Of a stretch of DNA of 64,000 nt, positions 6,894 through 60,353 are shown piece after piece (within the stretch, counting starts at the first letter, position 1; each line of letters starts with the position of its first letter). The translations under genes and the position numbers were made by a program. The stretch lies in the NCBI GenBank assembly GCA_025812035.1, contig GCA_025812035.1_4719.1. One strand, given 5' to 3'. Source of the DNA: a phage. The notes below the pieces were generated by a model. That model was not told the DNA's origin, made no database searches, and was given only the letters and a program-made list of their open reading frames with translations.

Positions 6894-6923
6894 ACGGATG
6901 TAAAAAAAATAACACATAGTTAA

Positions 6924-6958
6924 CCTTCTCCCCAACCCGATGAGGGAAGGGGAGAAGG
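6924..6958. terminator. bidirectional hairpin between convergent genes
   Basis: Perfect 10-bp stem CCTTCTCCCC/GGGGAGAAGG around inner CCC-GATGA-GGG; A8 tract upstream and T-rich downstream on plus. Confidence 0.6.
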
Positions 6959-6975
6959 GCTATGCGCTATTTAAT

Positions 6976-9891: not shown

Positions 9892-11688
9892 TCAATCGAT
9901 TATGTCACGATCGTTAATTTCTACAATTTCTTCATCGAATCGACCGACGTCTTTCTTCAAGCCTGCATTTGTTGCTGCAACGTCATTTGCAATTTGTGGG
10001 GTAACGATTAACCGACCACGCTCGTCGATAGGTGCGTACATACTGAACTTCTGACGTCCGGTTGGTTCGGAGTGTGGAAGATTCAGATAGCTCGCACAGA
10101 ACGGGATGGAACCACTAACCAAACGACTCTCGTCAGCCAACGCAGCACCGCCTGCGTTTTGGCTCTGGAGAACAACATGCGTGCTCACTTTGAACAGCAT
10201 GCAATCACCCGGTGACTGAATCGATGTTGCCACTTTCTCACGCTTATCACGATTGCTCTGGATATTGAGAATCGCTTCTGTTGCAACTTGATTTCGCAAC
10301 GCCTTCTGTACATCGCGATTGGTCATCTCTTTACGGTTGTTCTGTCGTTTACCACGTTCTGTGGTTTTAAGATGGAACCCCAGTTTAAAGATGCTCTTAC
10401 GCACATCCTCCATGACATATTCCAACACCATCAATTCCTTACCGAACATCGTCGTGGTATCAACACGACTCATTTCGATAGTAACATTGTCAATCAGATA
10501 CGCCATAAATTCGTAGAAGTCATCGCAAGGAATATTTTCCTGTTTGAACTTCTTCTGCTGAATTTCGTCGACGTAAAGATCAAGGCTATCGATGTGGTGG
10601 TTTACATCACGCAACAAACGCGCATCCGCGTTGTTGTTATTAAAGATAATCAAACCGAGTAATGTACGCCAATGGTCTGGCGCATTAGCGAACTCTTCAA
10701 CCGGATAGTCTTCCGGAAAACGATCGTAATAGCGGTCGATGAGATACAAGAACGCACCGACAAGGCCAAGAACAATACGTTCCGTGCCTCCACGTCTTAC
10801 AGCAATTTGAATATCAGGATGTTTATAACGTACAGCGTTAGCGCTACGGCTTTTACCGCTCTTACTAATACTAAAGCCTTTAGGAATAACCCCCATGGTG
10901 CGATAGATTACCCATTGGTCGCGCGGAAAATCGCGTTCAGCAAGATTCCGTCCGGTTACCGCTTCGACACCCGCGAAACGTCGGAAACATTCACCTACCC
11001 CGTACTTCGCAAAGAGATAGTGACCCAATGTGGTTACACTGGTGTGGTTGATGTTGTCACCGTTCACTTTACTTTGTTTGGTAAGATGATAGATTTGCGA
11101 CCAGGGTAACGATAGATAGTGACGATAATCGACACCGGTTGGAGTATCATTACTCAGGAACTGATACGGCGTACGTTTAACTGTGATTTTGTCACGCGGA
11201 AGCATGATGAACGCCATGTCTTTCGTGTAACTGATTACAGGGTCAGCGAGTACCGCACTGAGAATAAAGTTTGCACCACGTAGACGCATTTTACCACCCT
11301 GCCCTACTGCGGGTAATAGGAGAGGGTGTCGGATAATGCAGTAGTCCTTTCCTGGTTCACGACGGTCACCTGATTCCATCGCGCCATACCAGCGGAATTC
11401 TAACATCACCATAAACACATCGGACGGCGCAAGGTCAAAGGTCAGCTTACCGCTATCCTTCCCTTTGGTTTTCTTTCCTCCGCTTAAGTAGTGAAACTGT
11501 TCGCGGGCCACACAACGACGTAGGCCATGATACACCAGATCCTTAGGTAAACTATCTTTGCTGTTCCGCCAAAGACGATCAACATAGGACTCAACATCTT
11601 GCATCTTATCGACGACGATGTTGCGCGCTATCTTCTCGTTCATCTTCGGTGCAAGCCCAGCGACAGCTTTGCAGAATCTAGGATCCAT
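9892..11688 (-). CDS. hypothetical protein (~598 aa)
   Basis: ORF track 9892..11691; ATG at 11686-11688 preceded by AAAGGAG SD; no polymerase or terminase motifs recognised. Confidence 0.6.
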   Translation of the reverse strand: MDPRFCKAVAGLAPKMNEKIARNIVVDKMQDVESYVDRLWRNSKDSLPKDLVYHGLRRCVAREQFHYLSGGKKTKGKDSGKLTFDLAPSDVFMVMLEFRWYGAMESGDRREPGKDYCIIRHPLLLPAVGQGGKMRLRGANFILSAVLADPVISYTKDMAFIMLPRDKITVKRTPYQFLSNDTPTGVDYRHYLSLPWSQIYHLTKQSKVNGDNINHTSVTTLGHYLFAKYGVGECFRRFAGVEAVTGRNLAERDFPRDQWVIYRTMGVIPKGFSISKSGKSRSANAVRYKHPDIQIAVRRGGTERIVLGLVGAFLYLIDRYYDRFPEDYPVEEFANAPDHWRTLLGLIIFNNNNADARLLRDVNHHIDSLDLYVDEIQQKKFKQENIPCDDFYEFMAYLIDNVTIEMSRVDTTTMFGKELMVLEYVMEDVRKSIFKLGFHLKTTERGKRQNNRKEMTNRDVQKALRNQVATEAILNIQSNRDKREKVATSIQSPGDCMLFKVSTHVVLQSQNAGGAALADESRLVSGSIPFCASYLNLPHSEPTGRQKFSMYAPIDERGRLIVTPQIANDVAATNAGLKKDVGRFDEEIVEINDRDIID

Positions 11689-13346: not shown

Positions 13347-13403
13347 TCACCTAGGTAATGTAAGCGTCAAATTTTTTCTATTTGCAACGATAAACAGCAT
13401 AGA
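13347..13403 (-). promoter_or_regulatory. conserved intergenic element, copy 1 (candidate promoter, partly diverged)
   Basis: Shares TCACCTAGGTAAT(G/A)TA and ACAGCATAGAA ends with the copies at 21507 and 59630; sits between a terminator hairpin and the next minus-strand gene. Confidence 0.35.
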
Positions 13404-13437
13404 AGCCTCCCCCAACCCTTGCGGGCTGAGGGAGGCT
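13404..13437 (-). terminator. hairpin terminator downstream of the capsid-candidate gene
   Basis: Stem AGCCTCCC/GGGAGGCT with inner CCC-TTGC-GGG; on minus strand followed by TTCTATGCTGTTTATCG. Confidence 0.55.
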
Positions 13438-13534
13438 GACTTATGTATCACGGTGCCGGATGAATGTCCGGTGCAATGAAACCATCTGCAACGTTGTCGT
13501 CAAGAATATCATCCAACGAAGCAGCTACGGTAGT

Positions 13535-15757
13535 TCAGTTAGTCTGAACCGGCAGCTTGATGTTTTCAGTGTAGACCTTACGCAGGTTCACGACGTTAAT
13601 CAGACCCAGCAGCGGGCAGTTGTTAACGAAGCGGCAGCGCGGCTGAACCATGGTTTCTTTAGAAACCTGACCGTTACGGGTAACCTGAGCAACAGATACC
13701 AGTTCCGGTACATACAGGAACATACCGAAGGTCAGCGGATCCGGAGAACCCTGGATACCACGAGACAGGGTCACGAAGATCTTATCACGCAGCAGGACGT
13801 TCGGGTTATCTACAACCACGAAGTTGAAGCTTACACCAACGGTACGGAAATCACCATCGGTCTGCAGGAACTGCGGGATGTAGTTGTCGGTTGCTACTAC
13901 GCAACGCGGTTTCTCATCAGCGTTGGAAGACAGCAGCTGCAGAGCTGGCTGATAACCAGACTCAGAGTACATGCGGTATGCCATCTCACGAATCACGTTC
14001 ATGATCGCAGCGGACACTTCAGCACGACGTTCTGCAGTGGTGGTACCCTGAACGGATTTCGCCAGGTCCAGGTTGATTTCTTCGAACCACGGACGGATCA
14101 GGTAACGACCGAAACCTTCGATCTGGATGTCACCGAACTGACGGAAGCGAGAGGTCGCAACTGCTTTCAGTGCGTCTTTGTAGCTGAACAGTTTCTCAAC
14201 CATCAGGTTGTCGAAACGTGCGTTAGCCGCTTGGATCAGAACGTCCAGGTCAGCAGCGTTTTCTTCCCAATCAAGCGGACGAGGAATGGAGAACGGAGCC
14301 AGCAGACCGATTGCGTAACGCTCTTGCTTCATGTTGAAGTCAAGGTGCTTACCACGTTCACGACGGTTGCTGTTGTTACGACGGATACGCAGTTCGTAAC
14401 CAACCAGTTTGAAGCTCAGGTCGTCAGCCAGGTCTTTGAATTCTTGGCTCTTACGCGGCTGTTCGATGTTGTCCTGATCAACCAGGCGATACAGTTCAGC
14501 GTTAGCGCCGTTAACACGCAGACCCGCTTTCTCTACGTTGGAAGAACCGTAAACTTCGATAGCCAGCTGAGCAGCGGATTTCGCATCGATGATGTCCTGC
14601 AGCGCTTCGGCTTTCGCACCTTTAACGTCAACGGTGTTCTCATCAACGAAGATGGAGTGAGTGTCGAACGCCAGGGTCATTTTGCGGAAGTCGCCTTCCA
14701 GAGATTTCTGGAAACCGTTGGTGATCAGACCGGATACGTCGAACGGAACGTAAGAGGTTTTGCTGTGCTTAGCGGATTTGATTTCCACCAGGATTTTGGT
14801 CAGCGTGATCTGAGCATCCAGCGCGTCGGTGTTGTCGCTGTAACCGTTAGCCAGAATGCTATCGTCTTCAGCGATACCGATCATGTCGATCAGTTTATCA
14901 ACAGCCAGGTAAGACGTTTTATAAGTTACGCCTTTAATTTCGATGTCACGCGGAGCAACGATAGCTTTGTCAACGAAGTACTGCGCGTTAGCATCGTCAG
15001 CACGATAGATCGGGTGCAGGTCGGTCACGTCGTTGGACAGAACGTCGTTGTACATGAACGCGTCCAGCAGCGGACGACGTACCCAATCAGCCGGAGTACC
15101 GTCAGCGTTACGACGCAGATGGTTGAATACCAGCGGACGACGGAAAGATACGTCATAACCGATCTGGTTCGGAGCCAGAACGATGGTGTTGTACAGTTCG
15201 TTACCCATGCGGCTCAGACGAGAAGCCTTCACGTTGAACACAACGGAGTACGGCATCATGTCGCGCAGTTCTTTCTGGTCGTAGGACAGCTGAACCAGTT
15301 CTTCAGATTCGCAACCGCAGGAATCAGCAGCCATCATGACGAAGTTAGAGCTGTCAACTTCACGACCTGACGGAGTGGTGCTGATGTTCATGGAACGTGC
15401 TTGTTTAGCGTATTCCACCGGGTTACCATGAGCCAGCATGATCAGTGCTGCTGCACGAGCCTGCTGTGCGTTCATGGTGAACAGCTGTTCTTCAATACGC
15501 TGCTTCTCTTCCGGAGTGGTGGTTTCGAAGCCCAGCATAGACAGAACCGGTTCTTCTGCTTTACGGATGTCGCTGCTGAAGCTCTTAACATCCATATCGT
15601 TAACCAGTTTGTCCATGGATTTGAAATCAACCTTAGAAGCAGATTCCATAGACAGGAAGGTGTTTTCCAGACCTTTGTCTGCTGGTTTGCTACCATTAGC
15701 GGTCAGGAACTGGCGAGTGGCCGCGACCTGCTGGCTAAGAAGGGTTTTATCATTCAT
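13535..15757 (-). CDS. candidate major capsid protein (740 aa); tail sheath not excluded
   Basis: Strongest codon bias in the window (CGT/CTG/ACC/GGT-rich), implying very high expression; length matches the ~740-750 aa major capsid proteins I recall for phiKZ-like phages; AAAGGA SD; acidic N-terminal region with S-x-E motifs; no homology search run. Confidence 0.5.
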   Translation of the reverse strand: MNDKTLLSQQVAATRQFLTANGSKPADKGLENTFLSMESASKVDFKSMDKLVNDMDVKSFSSDIRKAEEPVLSMLGFETTTPEEKQRIEEQLFTMNAQQARAAALIMLAHGNPVEYAKQARSMNISTTPSGREVDSSNFVMMAADSCGCESEELVQLSYDQKELRDMMPYSVVFNVKASRLSRMGNELYNTIVLAPNQIGYDVSFRRPLVFNHLRRNADGTPADWVRRPLLDAFMYNDVLSNDVTDLHPIYRADDANAQYFVDKAIVAPRDIEIKGVTYKTSYLAVDKLIDMIGIAEDDSILANGYSDNTDALDAQITLTKILVEIKSAKHSKTSYVPFDVSGLITNGFQKSLEGDFRKMTLAFDTHSIFVDENTVDVKGAKAEALQDIIDAKSAAQLAIEVYGSSNVEKAGLRVNGANAELYRLVDQDNIEQPRKSQEFKDLADDLSFKLVGYELRIRRNNSNRRERGKHLDFNMKQERYAIGLLAPFSIPRPLDWEENAADLDVLIQAANARFDNLMVEKLFSYKDALKAVATSRFRQFGDIQIEGFGRYLIRPWFEEINLDLAKSVQGTTTAERRAEVSAAIMNVIREMAYRMYSESGYQPALQLLSSNADEKPRCVVATDNYIPQFLQTDGDFRTVGVSFNFVVVDNPNVLLRDKIFVTLSRGIQGSPDPLTFGMFLYVPELVSVAQVTRNGQVSKETMVQPRCRFVNNCPLLGLINVVNLRKVYTENIKLPVQTN

Positions 15758-15906
15758 TGAAAGTATCCTTTACAGAATTAACTTATATAAGTCGGTCGAT
15801 AGACCATAGCGTACACGCGTGCATGCGCCACTATAGTATCAGTAAACACTTACCGTTGTTTAGGCTGTGATACAACACTAAAAATGCCGCATAACTTTTT
15901 CCTACG

Positions 15907-18177: not shown

Positions 18178-18202
18178 ACGCAAAAAAAAAGAATGTACGG
18201 TT

Positions 18203-18234
18203 CCCTCCTCCAACCCGTAAGGGAAGGAGGAGGG
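18203..18234. terminator. bidirectional intrinsic terminator
   Basis: CCCTCCTCC-AA-CCC-GTAA-GGG-AA-GGAGGAGGG hairpin (GNRA-type loop); A9 tract on plus = U9 after the hairpin on minus; between convergent genes. Confidence 0.7.
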
Positions 18235-18249
18235 TTATGACCGTGTTGG

Positions 18250-21506: not shown

Positions 21507-21565
21507 TCACCTAGGTAATATAGTCGTGAAATAAACTGGATTAACAAGAATAAGACAGCATAGAA
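21507..21565 (-). promoter_or_regulatory. conserved intergenic element, copy 2 (candidate promoter)
   Basis: ~85% identical over ~59 nt to the copy at 59630-59690 (plus strand TCACCTAGGTAATATAGTCGTGAAATAAACTGGATTAACAAGAATAAGACAGCATAGAA); on minus reads …TTGTTAATCCAGTTTATTTCACGACTATATTACCTAGGTGA, upstream of the gene starting at 21451. Confidence 0.4.
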
Positions 21566-21597
21566 CCCTCTCCCAACCCATCAGGGAAGGGAGAGGG
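21566..21597 (-). terminator. hairpin terminator of the CCCTCC family
   Basis: CCCTCTCCC…GGGAGAGGG with inner CCC-ATCA-GGG; followed on minus by TTCTATGCTGTCTTATTC. Confidence 0.55.
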
Positions 21598-21601
21598 AAT
21601 A

Positions 21602-26818: not shown

Positions 26819-26870
26819 CGCAGATTCCTGTTTGAAAGATAAGATATCACATGATGGTTGACAGCATAAA

Positions 26871-26890
26871 GCCCACCCCGAAGGGCGGGC
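26871..26890 (-). terminator. hairpin terminator
   Basis: GCCCACCC-CGAA-GGGCGGGC (one mismatch); followed on minus by TTTATGCTGTCAACC. Confidence 0.5.
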
Positions 26891-26906
26891 TGTTTATGCG
26901 TACTGG

Positions 26907-30287: not shown

Positions 30288-31394
30288 TTAAAAGTAGTAT
30301 TTCAGCGCCTCGCGAGAGACCTCAAGCATAGCCGCCGTTGAATTCGTAAAGAACTCGGCATAGCCCACAAGCGGCACCTTGATCCACGCGGTATACGCTG
30401 TAAGGTATCGAGAAAGGGCTACCATAGCATCATCAGAAGCAGTAGCAACTGACAACTGACCTTGTTGACGATAAACGTCGTTAAGTTTTGCTTGTAGATT
30501 CCCTGCAATTTCGAGTAACTCGTTGGCGTACTTTTTACGGTGGTAAGCAACCAGCAAATCAACGCCCGTATTTACCGACTCGAGTAGAACACCAACTTGT
30601 TCTAATGATGGCATCGTAACCACCATATCTCGTTCAACGGATGGTATATCCTGAACTTCAAACCGCGCCGATTGAATAGCGAGGGATTGTTGAATTGAAC
30701 CAGAACCCGAGGTGGTAACCTGATCGAGTCGCAACATACGGTTACCCAGTAACGTGACGTTGACGAGTCTCGATTCGTTCAGTGTGTTGTAGACTTTATA
30801 CAGTAACGTATACGCATCACGGTTAATCACATCGATTAATGCGGTATCCGTCTGTTTTAAGATAATGTCGAGTGCTCTATCTAACGTATTAGCGAACTGC
30901 TTGAAATCGTCACGGAACGACGAAGACAAGAGATATTCAGCGATTGCTAAATTCTGCTTGTATAACGTATTCCCGGTTGTGAAGTCGAACCCAAAACTGT
31001 TTCCATACCGTAGGTGCGGAGCCAGCGTCGACGATGCTTCGAAGCTTTGCGCGATGGGTTTACGACCAACGGCTTTTGTATAATGGCGACGGATGTTACT
31101 GAGTTCGAGCTGTAGTGCGCGACTACGATCGATAAACCGTGCGATAAAAGCAGTAATATTCCGCAACGTTGTCCAGATTGCATCAATGATGGCTTTGATG
31201 ATTTTCATCGCAAGTTGACTGTGCGATTCCATCGTGAGGAGATCAGCACTTTCTGTGGTGTAACCGGTTACCTGGATACCACCTGCTTGCTGATAAATAA
31301 GCTGGTGAATTTCTCGTTGCGTTGCTGTCTCTGGTACAGGTAATGTCTTTAACAAGCTTAACGCTTGAATCTGTCCGTCATAGGTCTGCAGCAT
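30288..31394 (-). CDS. paralogous virion (inner-body/ejection-like) protein 1 (~368 aa)
   Basis: ORF track 30288..31457; ATG 31392-31394 with GAGGAAA SD; amphipathic KIIKAIIDAIWTTLRNITAFIARFIDR segment as in neighbours. Confidence 0.55.
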   Translation of the reverse strand: MLQTYDGQIQALSLLKTLPVPETATQREIHQLIYQQAGGIQVTGYTTESADLLTMESHSQLAMKIIKAIIDAIWTTLRNITAFIARFIDRSRALQLELSNIRRHYTKAVGRKPIAQSFEASSTLAPHLRYGNSFGFDFTTGNTLYKQNLAIAEYLLSSSFRDDFKQFANTLDRALDIILKQTDTALIDVINRDAYTLLYKVYNTLNESRLVNVTLLGNRMLRLDQVTTSGSGSIQQSLAIQSARFEVQDIPSVERDMVVTMPSLEQVGVLLESVNTGVDLLVAYHRKKYANELLEIAGNLQAKLNDVYRQQGQLSVATASDDAMVALSRYLTAYTAWIKVPLVGYAEFFTNSTAAMLEVSREALKYYF

Positions 31395-32679
31395 TGCTGG
31401 TTTCCTCAAGTTCGAGATGCGCGTCAAGATAATCATTAAGACCATCGATGACGTCACAGACAGTTAACAGGAATCGGGCAAAAGCGACCGCCTGGAAGCC
31501 GACGACGTTACGCGCGATACCCACACGTTGAACGATGGCGGATGATGCGGTATCGCTGCTGTCCATCTGTTGTAGCAAACGCTCGTAAGGTTGAATCCAT
31601 TCGTCCTGGTCGGCAAGGCTTGCTTCAAGACAACGTTTGAATTCCAACTGTCGTAGCGTAGACCATAACGTACTTAGTGCGTTGATTATCGCGTTGGTTC
31701 CGTCGATAACATCGTTTAACGGTAAGAAACGGAATCCGTCTTTTGCTGATTGGAACGGTGCAGCTTCCCACACAACGCTGAACTGCGTTCCTGTTGCGTC
31801 TTCGATGTTGTGTAATTTAAGATAGGAAGCACCGACGGGTACGTCAACGACGATATCGTCTGTTCCGATAGACGTTAACGGCTTCTCGCATAACGCATCG
31901 TTGATGACCTCGAGAATATTCTCCCAGCACGCTTCGTTCTCCGCTGCGATACCTTCTTTGTTATCCGCTGACGGCGCTTTTAGTAGCTTCATTAATAACG
32001 GATCAAGTTGACGGTGCCATGTTGCGAGTATTCCCGTGTTCGTTACGATGTTTTCTGCTGTTTGCTGTAAATCAGCAATACTGCTTACCGCACCCCCTTT
32101 CGGATGAAGATATCGCCAGTTGTAAGGAAAGTTCTCCCAGAATGCGTTATCTTCATTAACGTCGTATTCGGTAATGCTTTTCAGCTTAGCCGCTTTCTTT
32201 AATAACGGCTTCACCTGACGAACGAATCGACGGTAACAGCGATTACAGATATCGATCGCGTAGCGGTATAGCTCATTCATGTAAAGCCATAACGCTCGGG
32301 TTGCTTCTTTTGCGGTCTGGTCAAAACTTTCCATGTTCAGACTCATTCCGTTGGAAGTCTCCTCTTCCATACCCTCGATGATTTGGTTTGGATCCATTCC
32401 CATCCCAGCCGCTGCGGTTGATGCGATATGCTTGATGGTGTTGATATCGCGTTCTTCAACCTCAGTCATGTTTGGGACAATATCCAGCCTGAGTTTATTT
32501 AGTGTTTGAAGATGTTGTTCACCTTCTTTCATCACCGTGTTTGTTTCGTCGATTGAGTGAAACTGATTCTCAATATTACCGGCGTCGAGAATATTGCCAG
32601 CGATACCGAACGATTCTACAGGTTCATCATCAATCCCTTGAAACAACGATGACATGGGTTGTTGCATCACGTTTTCCAT
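31378..32679 (-). CDS. paralogous virion (inner-body/ejection-like) protein 2 (433 aa)
   Basis: ORF track; GGAG SD; shared core HIASTAAAGMGMDPNQII…MESFDQTAKEATRALWLYMNELYRYAIDI. Confidence 0.6.
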   Translation of the reverse strand: MENVMQQPMSSLFQGIDDEPVESFGIAGNILDAGNIENQFHSIDETNTVMKEGEQHLQTLNKLRLDIVPNMTEVEERDINTIKHIASTAAAGMGMDPNQIIEGMEEETSNGMSLNMESFDQTAKEATRALWLYMNELYRYAIDICNRCYRRFVRQVKPLLKKAAKLKSITEYDVNEDNAFWENFPYNWRYLHPKGGAVSSIADLQQTAENIVTNTGILATWHRQLDPLLMKLLKAPSADNKEGIAAENEACWENILEVINDALCEKPLTSIGTDDIVVDVPVGASYLKLHNIEDATGTQFSVVWEAAPFQSAKDGFRFLPLNDVIDGTNAIINALSTLWSTLRQLEFKRCLEASLADQDEWIQPYERLLQQMDSSDTASSAIVQRVGIARNVVGFQAVAFARFLLTVCDVIDGLNDYLDAHLELEETSNAADL

Positions 32680-32699
32680 TTGGGACTCCTACGTAGGGA

Positions 32700-32780
32700 A
32701 ATCTTGGCGGGTGATCATGTCCGCCATTTACCTTCTGAATCATTAATTCAGAATGCGGAATATGAAGCAAGGCTTCATAC
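32700..32780 (-). promoter_or_regulatory. structured 5' leader with three consecutive stem-loops upstream of gene 31378..32679
   Basis: GGCGG-GTGATCATGT-CCGCC; TTCTGAAT-CATTA-ATTCAGAA; TGAAGC-AAG-GCTTCA, between the terminator hairpin and the SD. Confidence 0.35.
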
Positions 32781-32818
32781 CCAAGTCAAAAGATAACCGG
32801 ATGTTAACAGCATAATCA

Positions 32819-32850
32819 CCTCCTCCAACCCGTAAGGGAAGGAGGAGGGT
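32819..32850 (-). terminator. hairpin terminator of the CCCTCC family
   Basis: CCTCCTCC-AACCCGTAAGGGAA-GGAGGAGGG; followed on minus by GATTATGCTGTTAACATCC. Confidence 0.55.
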
Positions 32851-32858
32851 TATGGTGG

Positions 32859-34148
32859 TTATGCTTTTTCGGTCACAGCGTTGAAGTATTTCTCTGCAGC
32901 AAATACAGCATCCGCATATTGACGTACGGAGGCACGAAGGATCTTGGTTGACAGTACGGTACTTAAACGCGCCATTTCAGAAACCGCACCCACATAAGGA
33001 CGGATGGTTTCACGATCGGCTTCAGGCAGCTTGTCAAGCATGTCGCCCCACTTCGTTTTGATTTTCATACCGTTGAGTTTAGCGGTACGCTCCACAGAAC
33101 CAGCTAAAGCTTCAACCATGTGGAAATAAGAGGGGTCGATCGTACGGAACACGTTAAGATAGGAAGTTAACGCACCTTTCAGTTCGTTATCATCTTTGAA
33201 AATGTTTGCGTTCTCTATCTCACCGGCCACCGTCATCTCGGCTTCAACACGAATATTTTTCACCAACGCATAGGCTTTAATCGCGTCACGTTCGTTTTCA
33301 ACAGCATCGAGACCTTGAATAACGAATTCCTTCCCACCGCTCTCTGGAAAAACAACTTTATTCAGCGCGGATTTGATCGCCAGCAGGTATTTGTCTAAGA
33401 TAGATGGAAGCAGTGTGATGTCGGTGAGGTCTGCGACCTTTTTATTGATATCAGCTACTTGCTTAAACAATGAATCTACACCGCTTGCGCTTCCAGCGAG
33501 TTGTTCGATATGCTTGCTTGCGAACATGGCATTCGCTGACTTCGCATTAGGGAACATATTGACCATATTTTCAGTGGGCTTATCCAGTTGTTTGATATGG
33601 CGTTCACCTTTATTCACGGCGGTTGCGATGCCGACAATTTTGTTGTATGCGACGACCAGGTTCTTGAACAGTACCTGGAGCAGTTTGAACAGCTGCTCAG
33701 CGATATTTGCAATGATTACCCAAACCGCATATAACGCTTGTGCTGCGCGTTCTTTAAAGCCTTCCAATACAATGGCTTGCCCTTCCACTAACTTATCATT
33801 AGCCTGGAACATGTCTTCATCGGACATCCCCAGGTTTGCTGCTGACGTCGAAGCAATCTGACGGATAAGTGCGACGTCGCTAGGACGCGCTTCCGAGATC
33901 GTTGGTGCGATCATGTACGCTGTATCTTCCAGCGTTGCTGAGGTACGCACTGCGATTTCAGCCAGTTCGCTGGATTCATCGATTGTTTCGTCGGTACGTT
34001 GAATCACCAACTCAACTTCGTCCTCTTCGATTTCTGCGTTAGGGTCGTTCTGCTCCGCCGGAATCGCTGCGAGGAGATCTTCAGCACTCAGTAGAGAGAG
34101 TTCGAATGCGTTTTTATTGATGTTATCAAAAAGAGAAATACGAGCCAT
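32859..34148 (-). CDS. paralogous virion (inner-body/ejection-like) protein 3 (429 aa)
   Basis: ORF track; AAGGAA SD; core APTISEARPSDVALIRQIASTSAANLGM…VLEGFKERAAQALYAVWVIIANIAEQLFKLL. Confidence 0.65.
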   Translation of the reverse strand: MARISLFDNINKNAFELSLLSAEDLLAAIPAEQNDPNAEIEEDEVELVIQRTDETIDESSELAEIAVRTSATLEDTAYMIAPTISEARPSDVALIRQIASTSAANLGMSDEDMFQANDKLVEGQAIVLEGFKERAAQALYAVWVIIANIAEQLFKLLQVLFKNLVVAYNKIVGIATAVNKGERHIKQLDKPTENMVNMFPNAKSANAMFASKHIEQLAGSASGVDSLFKQVADINKKVADLTDITLLPSILDKYLLAIKSALNKVVFPESGGKEFVIQGLDAVENERDAIKAYALVKNIRVEAEMTVAGEIENANIFKDDNELKGALTSYLNVFRTIDPSYFHMVEALAGSVERTAKLNGMKIKTKWGDMLDKLPEADRETIRPYVGAVSEMARLSTVLSTKILRASVRQYADAVFAAEKYFNAVTEKA

Positions 34149-35474: not shown

Positions 35475-35521
35475 GTGTTGTCTCCAGTAACAATTCAAAA
35501 GATAAACCAGAACGGCATAAA

Positions 35522-35553
35522 CCCCTCTCCCAACCCGTAAGGGAAGGGAGAGG
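35522..35553 (-). terminator. hairpin terminator of the CCCTCC family
   Basis: CCCTCTCCC-AACCCGTAAGGGAA-GGGAGAGGG; followed on minus by U-rich TTTATGCCGTTCTGGTTTATCTTTTG. Confidence 0.6.
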
Positions 35554-35576
35554 GAATATATCAGTTTATTAACCGA

Positions 35577-43782: not shown

Positions 43783-43803
43783 AACAAAATAGCAAGTACA
43801 TAA

Positions 43804-43835
43804 CCCTCCTCCAACCCGTAAGGGAAGGAGGAGGG
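43804..43835. terminator. bidirectional hairpin between convergent large genes
   Basis: CCCTCCTCC-AACCCGTAAGGGAA-GGAGGAGGG, same inner loop as the 18203 copy. Confidence 0.65.
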
Positions 43836-43844
43836 AATATGTTG

Positions 43845-54090: not shown

Positions 54091-54138
54091 TTAAAGTATG
54101 TTGATCCTCGTTTAACAAAAAAGAAAACGCATGCGAAG

Positions 54139-54170
54139 CCCCTCCCCCTGGCGGAAGCCGGAGGGAGGGG
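54139..54170. terminator. hairpin terminator after the polymerase gene
   Basis: CCCCTCCC…CGG-AAG-CCG…GGGAGGGG imperfect nested stem, then TGGAGGTTTTATGTGTTTTTAATT on plus; convergent with the first gene of the small-paralog array. Confidence 0.6.
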
Positions 54171-54188
54171 TGGAGGTTTTATGTGTTT

Positions 54189-59562: not shown

Positions 59563-59629
59563 TTTGACATCCTCTTATATTGGATTGATTACAGTTATCT
59601 TAAATAGGCGATAAGATATCTTGCTCTTA

Positions 59630-59690
59630 TCACCTTAGTAATATAGCCGTGAAATAAATTGTGTTAACAAGAAATAAAACAGCATAGAAC
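59630..59690 (-). promoter_or_regulatory. conserved intergenic element, copy 3 (candidate promoter)
   Basis: Plus strand TCACCTTAGTAATATAGCCGTGAAATAAATTGTGTTAACAAGAAATAAAACAGCATAGAA; between a hairpin and the gene starting at 59562. Confidence 0.4.
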
Positions 59691-59730
59691 CCTCCTCCCC
59701 CATCCTTCAAGAGGACGGTGGGAAGAGGGA
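59690..59730 (-). terminator. imperfect nested hairpin of the CCCTCC family
   Basis: CCCTCCTCC…CCATCCT-TCAAG-AGGACGG…GGAAGAGGG; followed on minus by TTCTATGCTGTTTTATTTC. Confidence 0.45.
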
Positions 59731-59736
59731 GAGAGA

Positions 59737-60138: not shown

Positions 60139-60193
60139 GAGGCGCTTTTCCTATTTTTTATTTTCTGCACAGGATAAATTCAACGGCATAAAG

Positions 60194-60225
60194 CCCTTCC
60201 CTGCCCTTATATGGGGCGGGAAGAG
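60194..60225 (-). terminator. imperfect hairpin in a 215-bp noncoding gap
   Basis: CCCTTCCCTGCCC-TTATAT-GGGGCGGGAAGAG; followed on minus by CTTTATGCCGTTGAATTT. Confidence 0.4.
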
Positions 60226-60353
60226 TTTATGACCGCAATGAGAATCTCTCACGACAAGCTCACGACGATTATCGCATCACCCCGCGAGTGAGGGAGATCA
60301 GGATCACCTCCTACGTCGTAATGACAGCAATCCTGTTAACGCCGCCTTAGACG

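Follow-up and report, generated by a model that had tools for sequence, protein, structure and literature searches.

Conserved RNA hairpins in the untranslated leader of an internal head protein gene of Goslar-like jumbo phages

Three consecutive hairpins precede one virion-protein gene in a stretch of phage DNA of 64,000 nucleotides (contig GCA_025812035.1_4719.1 of assembly GCA_025812035.1; hereafter, the window). The window is ~91% identical to Escherichia phage vB_EcoM_Goslar (MK327938), a nucleus-forming chimallivirus, or Goslar-like jumbo phage, and its − strand carries nearly all of its genes. Features described below lie on the − strand unless the + strand is named. The gene in question (31378..32679) is the homolog of Goslar gp55 (94% amino acid identity) and encodes a paralog of the PF12699-fold internal head, or injected, proteins. 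We find that the hairpins, HP1, HP2, and HP3, are real, conserved stem-loops of the RNA type, located in the untranslated leader of this internal-head-protein gene. HP1 and HP2, with their short flanks, form a cassette that recurs at two other sites in the Goslar genome. Our tentative interpretation, which we consider possible and hold short of probable, is that HP1 to HP3 constitute a cis-acting RNA element that affects the fate of the mRNA, that is, its stability, processing, or recognition; the mechanism is one that we infer.

The leader lies in a 179-nt spacer (32680..32858) between the stop codon of the gp56 homolog, open reading frame (ORF) 32859..34148, and the ATG start codon (32679) of the gp55 homolog. 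HP1 (32758..32782) has the core TATGAAGC-CTT-GCTTCATA, with 11 bp, counting two G·U pairs, and a 3-nt loop. A CGCA linker (32754..32757), kept among cassette copies, connects it to HP2 (32733..32753; TTCTGAAT-TAATG-ATTCAGAA). HP2 follows the pattern TTCTGA-N9-TCAGAA and has 9 bp, eight of them Watson-Crick and one U·G, with a 3-nt loop. Its 3' flank, GGTA (32729..32732), occurs in each of the three genomic copies and in almost every leader (locus L023 has AGTA) and is followed by AA. HP3 (32705..32726; TGGCGG-ACATGATCAC-CCGCCA) combines a 6-bp stem with a nearly invariant 10-nt loop, ACAUGAUCAC, and is annotated in the Goslar record as "putative terminator, -10.30". Upstream of the three hairpins lie a terminator-like hairpin (32819..32848; CCTCCTCC-TT-CCC-TTAC-GGG-TT-GGAGGAGG; −22.9 kcal/mol) that follows the gp56-homolog stop and belongs to a repeated terminator family, the promoter-like motif TATGCTGT (32807..32814) directly 3' of it, and a 5' box, GGTTATCTTTTGAC (32785..32798), that ends an unpaired stretch and is invariant in all 11 distinct leaders described below. 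Downstream, an invariant palindrome, CCTACGTAGG (32686..32697), overlaps the Shine-Dalgarno (SD) sequence AGGAG (32690..32686), which stands 6 nt 5' of the ATG. A previous sequence-only reading of this DNA had placed three hairpins, with stems of 5–8 bp, between a terminator at ~32819-32850 and the SD of gene 31378..32679; the coordinates, stems, and terminator position agree with ours.

Each hairpin folds more stably than dinucleotide shuffles of its sequence: −11.3 kcal/mol for HP1 (z −4.5), −6.9 for HP2 (z −3.7), and −9.0 for HP3 (z −2.7). Folding of the leader RNA was one of the checks named in the sequence-only reading. The 135-nt leader as a whole reaches −37.6 kcal/mol (z −2.55; 4 of 200 shuffles were equal or better), and z falls to −5.0 when the terminator is included. 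The local hairpin at the SD is weak (−3.7 kcal/mol, z −1.0) and no better than shuffles. The window contains 49 perfect hairpins whose stems reach 7 bp or more, and shuffles contain 24 ± 6, about a twofold difference. Only ~9 distinct hairpins of this size touch the non-coding 5% of the window, and HP1 and HP2 are two adjacent ones.

Homologous spacers collected from Goslar, IMG/VR, metagenome, and Logan/ENA/NCBI contigs (more than 30 loci, to which the L numbers refer) reduce to 11 distinct leaders in three versions. Specifically, HP1, HP2, and HP3 occur together in the window and in L005, L018, L021, and L023; HP2 and HP3 (type B) occur in Goslar and six other contigs, with the leader identical in all seven independent contigs; and HP1 and HP3 (type C) occur in a sister group of ~87% amino acid identity. 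The earlier description of three hairpins therefore holds for the window but captures one of three leader versions: Goslar lacks HP1, and the sister group lacks HP2. HP3, accompanied by at least one of HP1 and HP2, is found in all 11 distinct leaders. Because either hairpin can be lost naturally while no leader is without both, the comparison suggests that HP1 and HP2 are mutually redundant.

The stems are retained as base-paired structures. In our alignment (A4), 98.2% of base-pair cells are standard pairs, compared to 42–52% when the partners are slid by one to three columns. Two pairs change in a compensatory manner within the gp55 leaders, namely, A-U to G-C in HP1 and C-G to U-A in HP3; the latter converts the HP3 stem from GGCGG/CCGCC to GGTGG/CCACC in 4 of 10 leaders. 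The HP1 loop is hypervariable, with five versions (CUU, CGU, CAU, CAC, and GUG), and the HP2 loop has three, whereas the 10-nt HP3 loop is almost invariant although its stem covaries. Between clades, third-codon positions of the flanking genes are 37–71% identical and the HP3 block is 87–100% identical, a difference from which we conclude that the leader is under purifying selection. Moreover, 13 G·U cells in HP1 and HP2 become A·C mismatches on the + strand, in 14 of 15 variants the stability of the sense fold equals or exceeds that of the antisense fold, and the cassette flanks CGCA and GGTA are not symmetric and, in every copy, face in the direction of transcription. Together, these features favor a sense-strand RNA element. 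Conservation with covariation was another check named in the sequence-only reading, and the hairpins pass it: they are kept far beyond neutral expectation, with compensatory or wobble changes that favor folding of sense-strand RNA.

The leader can be followed only a short distance through phage phylogeny. A blastn search with the leader against 50,697 phage records returned Goslar only, and searches with the gp55 homolog by tblastn and a word index returned only relatives of at least 86% identity; the leader is thus not traceable into other genera. A pattern scan of genome contigs and a protein scan for further relatives returned nothing. In IMG/VR, the exact HP1 core had no match, and the pattern CCTACGTAGGAGTCC had four chance matches beyond three Goslar-like contigs.

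Within the Goslar lineage, HP1-CGCA-HP2-GGTA is a repeated cassette. A covariance model (R1) built from the leader and searched against Goslar identified two additional copies, both co-oriented with transcription and both outside the Goslar region that corresponds to the window. The first lies in the 5' untranslated region (UTR) of gp12, an SbcC-like gene (Goslar MK327938 10029..9958, L034; 25.2 bits, E 0.0015). The second lies directly 3' of the stop codon of gp176 (Goslar ~160,860..160,957; L041 18359-18457; 22.3 bits), ahead of a terminator-like hairpin and gp175; its HP1 is degenerate. The product of gp176 is the RNA-binding protein of chimalliviruses, ChmC. Goslar contains three exact matches to TTCTGA-N9-TCAGAA, one at each of these sites and one upstream of gp55; all are intergenic, and by our own arithmetic chance would yield ~0.03. 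All three copies have GGTA on the 3' side, have CGCA on the 5' side where HP1 is present, and are oriented with transcription. The gp12 copy possesses a full HP1 counterpart (GCTGAAG-TATGG-CTTCAGC) that adds two compensatory pairs to HP1, for three HP1 pairs in total. Across copies, the inner three pairs of HP2 differ and are nonetheless paired in 23 of 24 cells, and the outer 6 bp are invariant. With several copies per genome, HP1-HP2 behaves as a dispersed intergenic repeat, in the manner of the repetitive extragenic palindromes and bacterial interspersed mosaic elements (REP/BIME) or of the promoter-early stem-loops (PeSLs) of phages. HP3 is single-copy: we found no other copy in the window or in Goslar. 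Within the window, HP1, HP3, and the leader as a whole are likewise single-copy.

These copies overturn the idea that the element is specific to the gp55 homolog, because HP1-HP2 recurs upstream of gp12 and after chmC in Goslar. A relaxed HP2 pattern matched 43 stretches in IMG/VR, and the inner stem is paired only in Goslar-group contigs. In L083, whose gp12 is 51% identical, the homologous gp12 leader (L083 9934-10000) measures 67 nt rather than 114 nt and has no cassette, although its ends match, with GTAATCTCCTAC on one side and GGAT..TCATAGCATG on the other. By these comparisons, the cassette is specific to the Goslar lineage, given that only Goslar-group contigs carry the paired motif and that the 51%-identical gp12 relative does not have it.

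Whether the hairpins can function in RNA depends on where transcription begins. In phiKZ, the late promoter is 5'-TATG-3', with the G as the start site, and it is read by the non-virion RNA polymerase (nvRNAP) (PMC4666361, PMC12809450). The motif TATGCTGT is of this type, and its G at 32811 is the predicted start site. TATGCYGT matches the window 11 times, compared to 3.6 expected, always on the − strand, and seven of the sites lie 2–4 nt 3' of a strong G+C-rich hairpin of −19 to −32 kcal/mol. The TATG of the gp55 leader is invariant in every relative, and the bases on either side vary. As in phiKZ, a TATG thus stands at the predicted start of a late virion unit. The only other TATG in the leader is within the HP1 stem. 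The products gp55, gp54, and gp53 have been detected in Goslar virions (bioRxiv 10.64898/2026.04.21.720040), so RNA must cross the spacer or begin within it. Given the invariance of TATG, the enrichment of TATGCYGT after terminators, and the phiKZ rule, HP1 to HP3 very probably lie inside a transcribed leader, a 132-nt 5' UTR that would start at 32811. A leader that escapes transcription, or a start site 3' of the hairpins, would have undone the sequence-only reading; the sequence argues against both, with a TATG after the terminator and none past HP3. The literature on Goslar transcription that we searched yielded no promoter or start-site analysis for Goslar-like phages.

Several variants touch this 5' part of the leader. 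In L007, L022, L036, and L039, as compared to window positions 32799-32809, 11 nt are deleted between two GTTA repeats just past TATG (TATGCTGTTATCTTTTGAC); owing to this deletion in some sister-group leaders, the spacing from start site to 5' box is not fixed. In the window alone (region 32811-32826), the 3' arm of the terminator reads GGAGGAGGTGAT, a perfect complement of the 16S rRNA 3' end. It lies 2 nt before the ATG of TATG, which starts a 12-codon ORF (MLLTSGYLLTWV). This ORF exists in the window's version only, is not conserved among relatives, and lies upstream of the predicted start site. L022 has a hybrid terminator (TT...AA) in which the internal loop is closed. A near copy of the 5' box, GTTTATCTTTTGAA, occurs at 35507..35494 in the leader of the gp57 homolog. 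Indeed, the gp55- and gp57-homolog leaders (32785-32798 and 35494-35507) share their 5' part, TATGCYGTT followed by GGTT(T)ATCTTTTGA(C/A), and other TATGCYGT sites also have T-rich boxes (TTATCTTTC, TTATTTCTT, TTTATCC) downstream at variable distance. This shared T-rich 5' box may serve the promoter, as a downstream element, or act as a signal in the RNA.

Known classes of regulatory leader do not account for the hairpins. A cmscan of 32400..33100 against Rfam (E ≤ 10) gave three chance-level matches, none of which covers the hairpins. As a class, the element would be a conserved cis-acting hairpin motif in phage intergenic RNA, previously undescribed and outside Rfam. HP1, HP2, and HP3 are not called as intrinsic terminators or attenuators on the − strand; HP3 is called on the + strand only. 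The sequences 3' of the three hairpins (AUUCCGCA, GGUAAAU, and AGAUUUCCC) contain no U-run. A leader-peptide attenuator is ruled out as far as sequence comparison allows, as indels of 31, 24, and 11 nt among relatives shift or cut every leader ORF. T7-type RNase III sites present about two helical turns of near-continuous double-stranded RNA, whereas the stems here are separate and have 11, 9, and 6 bp. Finally, HP1-HP2 does not contain the promoter and terminator stem-loop that define a PeSL-like cassette; the neighboring terminator-TATGCYGT module does.

The sequence-only reading had raised specific translational or RNA-stability control as roles for the leader. Translational control in its simple form, masking of the ribosome-binding site (RBS), is unsupported by our modeling, because the predicted energy needed to open positions −15 to +6 is the same with or without HP1 to HP3: the full leader requires 7.4 kcal/mol, a leader stripped of the hairpins 7.7, and the last 26 nt on their own 7.4. 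The hairpins end at least 14 nt before the SD, a distance that does not fit an RBS-sequestering riboregulator or RNA thermometer. The SD itself is predicted to be mostly paired, through local or long-range contacts; RNAalifold proposes a helix GACU(25-28)/AGUC(126-129), and both of its sides are invariant, so covariation is uninformative there. We also considered two other contacts. By our own reading of the alignments, a pseudoknot or kissing interaction of the HP3 loop (UGAUCA) with GAUY farther downstream or with the first part of the coding sequence is sterically implausible or not conserved. The resemblance of GAUCACC in HP3 to the 16S rRNA 3' end we take as coincidence.

The mechanism that we tentatively propose is the following. 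A late transcript would begin at the G of TATG (32811), directly past the gp56 terminator, and would encode the gp55, gp54, and gp53 homologs. HP1-CGCA-HP2-GGTA would be one copy of a tandem-hairpin cassette of the Goslar group that is present at three transcribed intergenic sites per genome, and HP3 would be a locus-specific hairpin with a sequence-constrained loop. The hairpins would act post-transcriptionally, either as structures that protect the transcript or define its processing, or as recognition elements through which half-life and yield are set, and probably not through masking of the RBS. Several observations weigh against this proposal. The predicted RNA begins with 29 unpaired nucleotides, which is not the classic geometry of a 5'-terminal protective hairpin. 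The cassette would be dispensable for gp12 elsewhere, as the 51%-identical relative does without it. Flips of hairpins and clean hairpin deletions are DNA-level events, and in L043 the whole post-chmC hairpin is flipped (relative to Goslar 160892-160912), leaving an A·C mismatch on the sense strand. The alignment comprises only about 10 distinct, closely related sequences, which makes the covariation statistics weak, and the shuffle control is not a probability. Last, even paralogous copies do not differ in the outer 6 bp of HP2 or in its flanks, a pattern that points to sequence-specific recognition over a purely structural role.

That pattern leads to an alternative that we rate as unlikely, in which a phage factor acting in trans, either a nuclease or a protein that binds RNA, would recognize the cassette and the HP3 loop by their sequences. 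The transcripts of gp12, gp55 to gp53, and chmC/gp175 would then form a small post-transcriptional regulon, controlled at the level of translation, export, or cleavage. Such a factor would explain why the outer TTCTGA/TCAGAA of HP2 and its flanks are the same in all copies and genomes while the inner stem and loop vary, and why the HP3 loop is nearly constant on a covarying stem. One copy directly follows the gp176 (ChmC) stop codon, and ChmC of PhiPA3 binds near start codons and at short non-coding regions (published ChmC study). However, that study gives no binding sequence motif, the three genes have no obvious functional link, similarity among the copies could stem from recent spread or gene conversion, and the gp12 leader of the related genus has no cassette.

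A rather doubtful explanation places the significance of the palindromes in DNA: they would form a small intergenic element, selfish or recombinogenic, that propagates and inverts through template switching and marks the borders of modules, and they would have no role as RNA. Exact flips do occur between close relatives. The inner part of the terminator, TTCCCTTACGGGTT at window positions 32827-32840, is AACCCGTAAGGGAA in L018, L021, L023, and L025, and the inner part of HP2 at the gp12 site, CCACGGG at Goslar 9988-9994, is CCCGTGG in L044/L045. Such exact reverse-complement variants, in an inner hairpin and in the neighboring terminator alike, point to palindrome-mediated flipping. The three dispersed copies, the empty homologous gp12 site in the related genus, and the clean deletions of single hairpins also fit, as do the comparable composite intergenic cassettes (PeSLs) of T4-like phages. 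Moreover, a recombination junction lies in the gp55 leader: L031 and L016 agree completely in the 5' coding sequence of gp55, differ in leader type, and have upstream genes of 66% identity. On the other side, conservation across the whole leader (HP3, the SD region, and the 5' box included) far exceeds that of synonymous sites, no genome is without both HP1 and HP2, and the G·U pairs and asymmetric flanks favor sense RNA. We saw no target-site duplications around the cassette and no associated transposase or nuclease. GATC, TGATCA, and TACGTA, examined as possible DNA-level signals, are neither avoided nor enriched in the window. Quite improbable, in our estimation, is attenuation, in which the hairpins, HP3 above all, would pause or prematurely terminate the phage RNA polymerase, reducing gp55 to gp53 expression and releasing a short 5' UTR-derived RNA. 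The annotation of HP3 in Goslar is consistent with this idea, gp55 is a low-copy protein, and 8 of 11 small RNAs (sRNAs) of 201phi2-1 and phiKZ arise by premature termination in 5' UTRs, one of them conserved by position. Yet, on the − strand, no U-run follows any hairpin and the terminator scan calls none, the phage's own terminators, at −19 to −32 kcal/mol, are far stronger and have TTTAT on their 3' side, and gp53, in the same predicted unit, is fairly abundant (~330 copies). We give very little credence to a functional + strand, with HP3 as a terminator or structure of an antisense RNA. On that strand, HP3 gains three in-register G·U pairs, precedes TTTACCTTCT, and is the sole terminator-like call here; the one change in the HP3 loop (L023) turns a + strand G·U into G-C; and folding is as good as on the − strand (z −2.57). 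But reading the + strand costs HP1, HP2, and the SD hairpin 13+26 paired cells, neither a gene nor a promoter-like site on that strand leads into HP3, and the + strand minimum-free-energy fold ignores the G·U extension.

The gene that the leader serves belongs to an array. The homologs of Goslar gp58 to gp53 are encoded from 36905 down to 26907. Against PF12699, the phiKZ internal head protein family, the gp58 homolog scores 68 bits and passes, the gp57 homolog scores 26.9 (cut-off 27), and the gp54 homolog scores 20.8; the gp55 homolog itself has no Pfam match. The gp55 and gp56 homologs are distant paralogs (23% identity, E 2e-9). In the Goslar virion, gp53 to gp58 have the PF12699 "inner body" fold, with ~2150 copies of gp58, ~330 of gp53, and 50–70 each of gp54 to gp57 (~50 for gp55) per virion (bioRxiv 10.64898/2026.04.21.720040). 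The gene had been described as a virion paralog, and the PF12699 matches of its neighbors, the gp55/gp56 relationship, and the published virion fold show that description to be right; membership in the PF12699 paralog array follows from the related neighboring genes and their matches. It had also been said that leaders elsewhere in the array are short and unstructured, which holds for the homologs of gp53, gp54, gp56, gp57, and gp58. Specifically, the gp57 homolog has a hairpin-free leader of 42 nt; the gp56, gp54, and gp53 homologs are separated from the preceding gene by 9 nt, an overlap, and 15 nt, respectively; and the gp58 homolog has a 64-nt spacer with a weak fold (−12 kcal/mol). Among the six array starts (36905, 35474, 34148, 32679, 31394, and 30272), the predicted RBS opening energy (−15 to +6) is lowest for the homologs of the abundant gp58 (3.35 kcal/mol) and gp53 (3.08 kcal/mol) and amounts to 6.4–8.9 kcal/mol for the four low-copy genes, which fits the published copy numbers, albeit for six genes only.

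Beyond the gp55 leader, a composite module is present seven times on the − strand, at 13394-13445, 21555-21601, 26861-26906, 32807-32848, 35512-35555, 59679-59730, and 60183-60230. Its hairpin is often CCCTCYCC-NN-CCC-N4-GGG-NN-GGRGAGGG, and TATGCYGT follows 2–4 nt on. The repeated module looks like a terminator fused to a phiKZ-type late promoter. Similar hairpins lie between convergent genes at 6894-6975, 18178-18249, 43783-43844, and 54091-54188. Over the whole window, TATG is strongly depleted on the + strand (125, with 294 expected from base composition) and mildly on the − strand (235, with 270 expected). The + strand depletion could reflect avoidance of antisense promoters or an effect of codon usage. 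Other long, structured leaders exist. The homolog of Goslar gp41 (13535..15757), which encodes the major capsid protein, is preceded by a 149-nt spacer (15758-15906, −) that forms several hairpins (−39.7 kcal/mol) and contains GTTATGCGGC. The − strand spacers 59563-59736 (174 nt) and 60139-60353 (215 nt), upstream of the Goslar gp75 and gp76 homologs, each combine a terminator-TATGCYGT module with additional hairpins, such as GATAAGAGCAAGATATCTTATC (59631..59610).

The cassette resembles, and differs from, several known elements. REP/BIME elements of enterobacteria number in the hundreds, lie in both orientations, are accompanied in many genomes by a REP-associated tyrosine transposase (RAYT), and can stabilize mRNA. 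Like the cassette, they are dispersed, often tandem intergenic hairpins that are co-transcribed with their neighbors, and loop flips and deletions are common between strains; unlike them, the phage has three co-oriented copies, and we saw no such enzyme. RNase III sites of phage T7 are single, irregular helices of ~20 bp at several intergenic sites and act on mRNA processing and stability. As with the cassette, a single phage carries several such related hairpins; HP1 and HP2, however, are separate stems of 9–11 bp, too short for canonical substrates. PeSLs of T4-like phages are short, repeated stem-loop cassettes at module boundaries with insertions, deletions, and recombination (PMC2839356, PMC4122927). 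Their direct analogue in the window is the seven-copy terminator-TATGCYGT module. HP1-HP2, in contrast, has no recognizable promoter or terminator and occurs in three copies inside transcribed leaders or a 3' UTR. PeSLs, in addition, carry sigma-70 early promoters, while here a chimallivirus polymerase and a TATG at the start site would be involved. Another structured leader of a chimallivirus virion-protein gene is the conserved 5' UTR structure upstream of phiKZ gp182 homologs (201phi2-1, phiKZ, EL, and PA3; PMC11512511). It concerns a different gene and genus, and a short terminated sRNA was observed there, whereas the gp55 leader is known from sequence and has no terminator features; a sequence relation between the two is not established. 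Finally, the phiKZ late promoter (PMC4666361, PMC12809450) shares with the Goslar-group motif the invariant TATG next to the predicted start, the position before virion genes, and the enrichment on the coding strand, but the latter extends to TATGCYGT and forms a unit with the terminator hairpin 5' of it.

Nucleus-forming jumbo phages separate transcription from translation, and little is known of cis-acting mRNA signals in them. Our analysis offers a sequence-based prediction that Goslar-type late promoters consist of TATGCYGT fused to the preceding terminator, as well as the prediction that accessibility of the RBS is tied to the large differences in virion copy number among the PF12699 paralogs. 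The cassette provides a defined RNA bait and three deletion targets per Goslar genome, in a phage for which RNA-seq, knock-down tools, and virion copy numbers are available. If the hairpins only stabilize mRNA, they are an ordinary phage leader element, though one undescribed so far. We speculate, while regarding the idea as improbable, that the cassette, possibly with the HP3 loop, is an RNA-handling recognition signal of nucleus-forming phages, read by ChmC or another factor for export, localization, or cleavage, with a regulon of chmC, the SbcC-like nuclease gene, and the low-copy internal head proteins. If the cassette is such a recognition signal, it would be of greater importance for the RNA biology of nucleus-forming phages.

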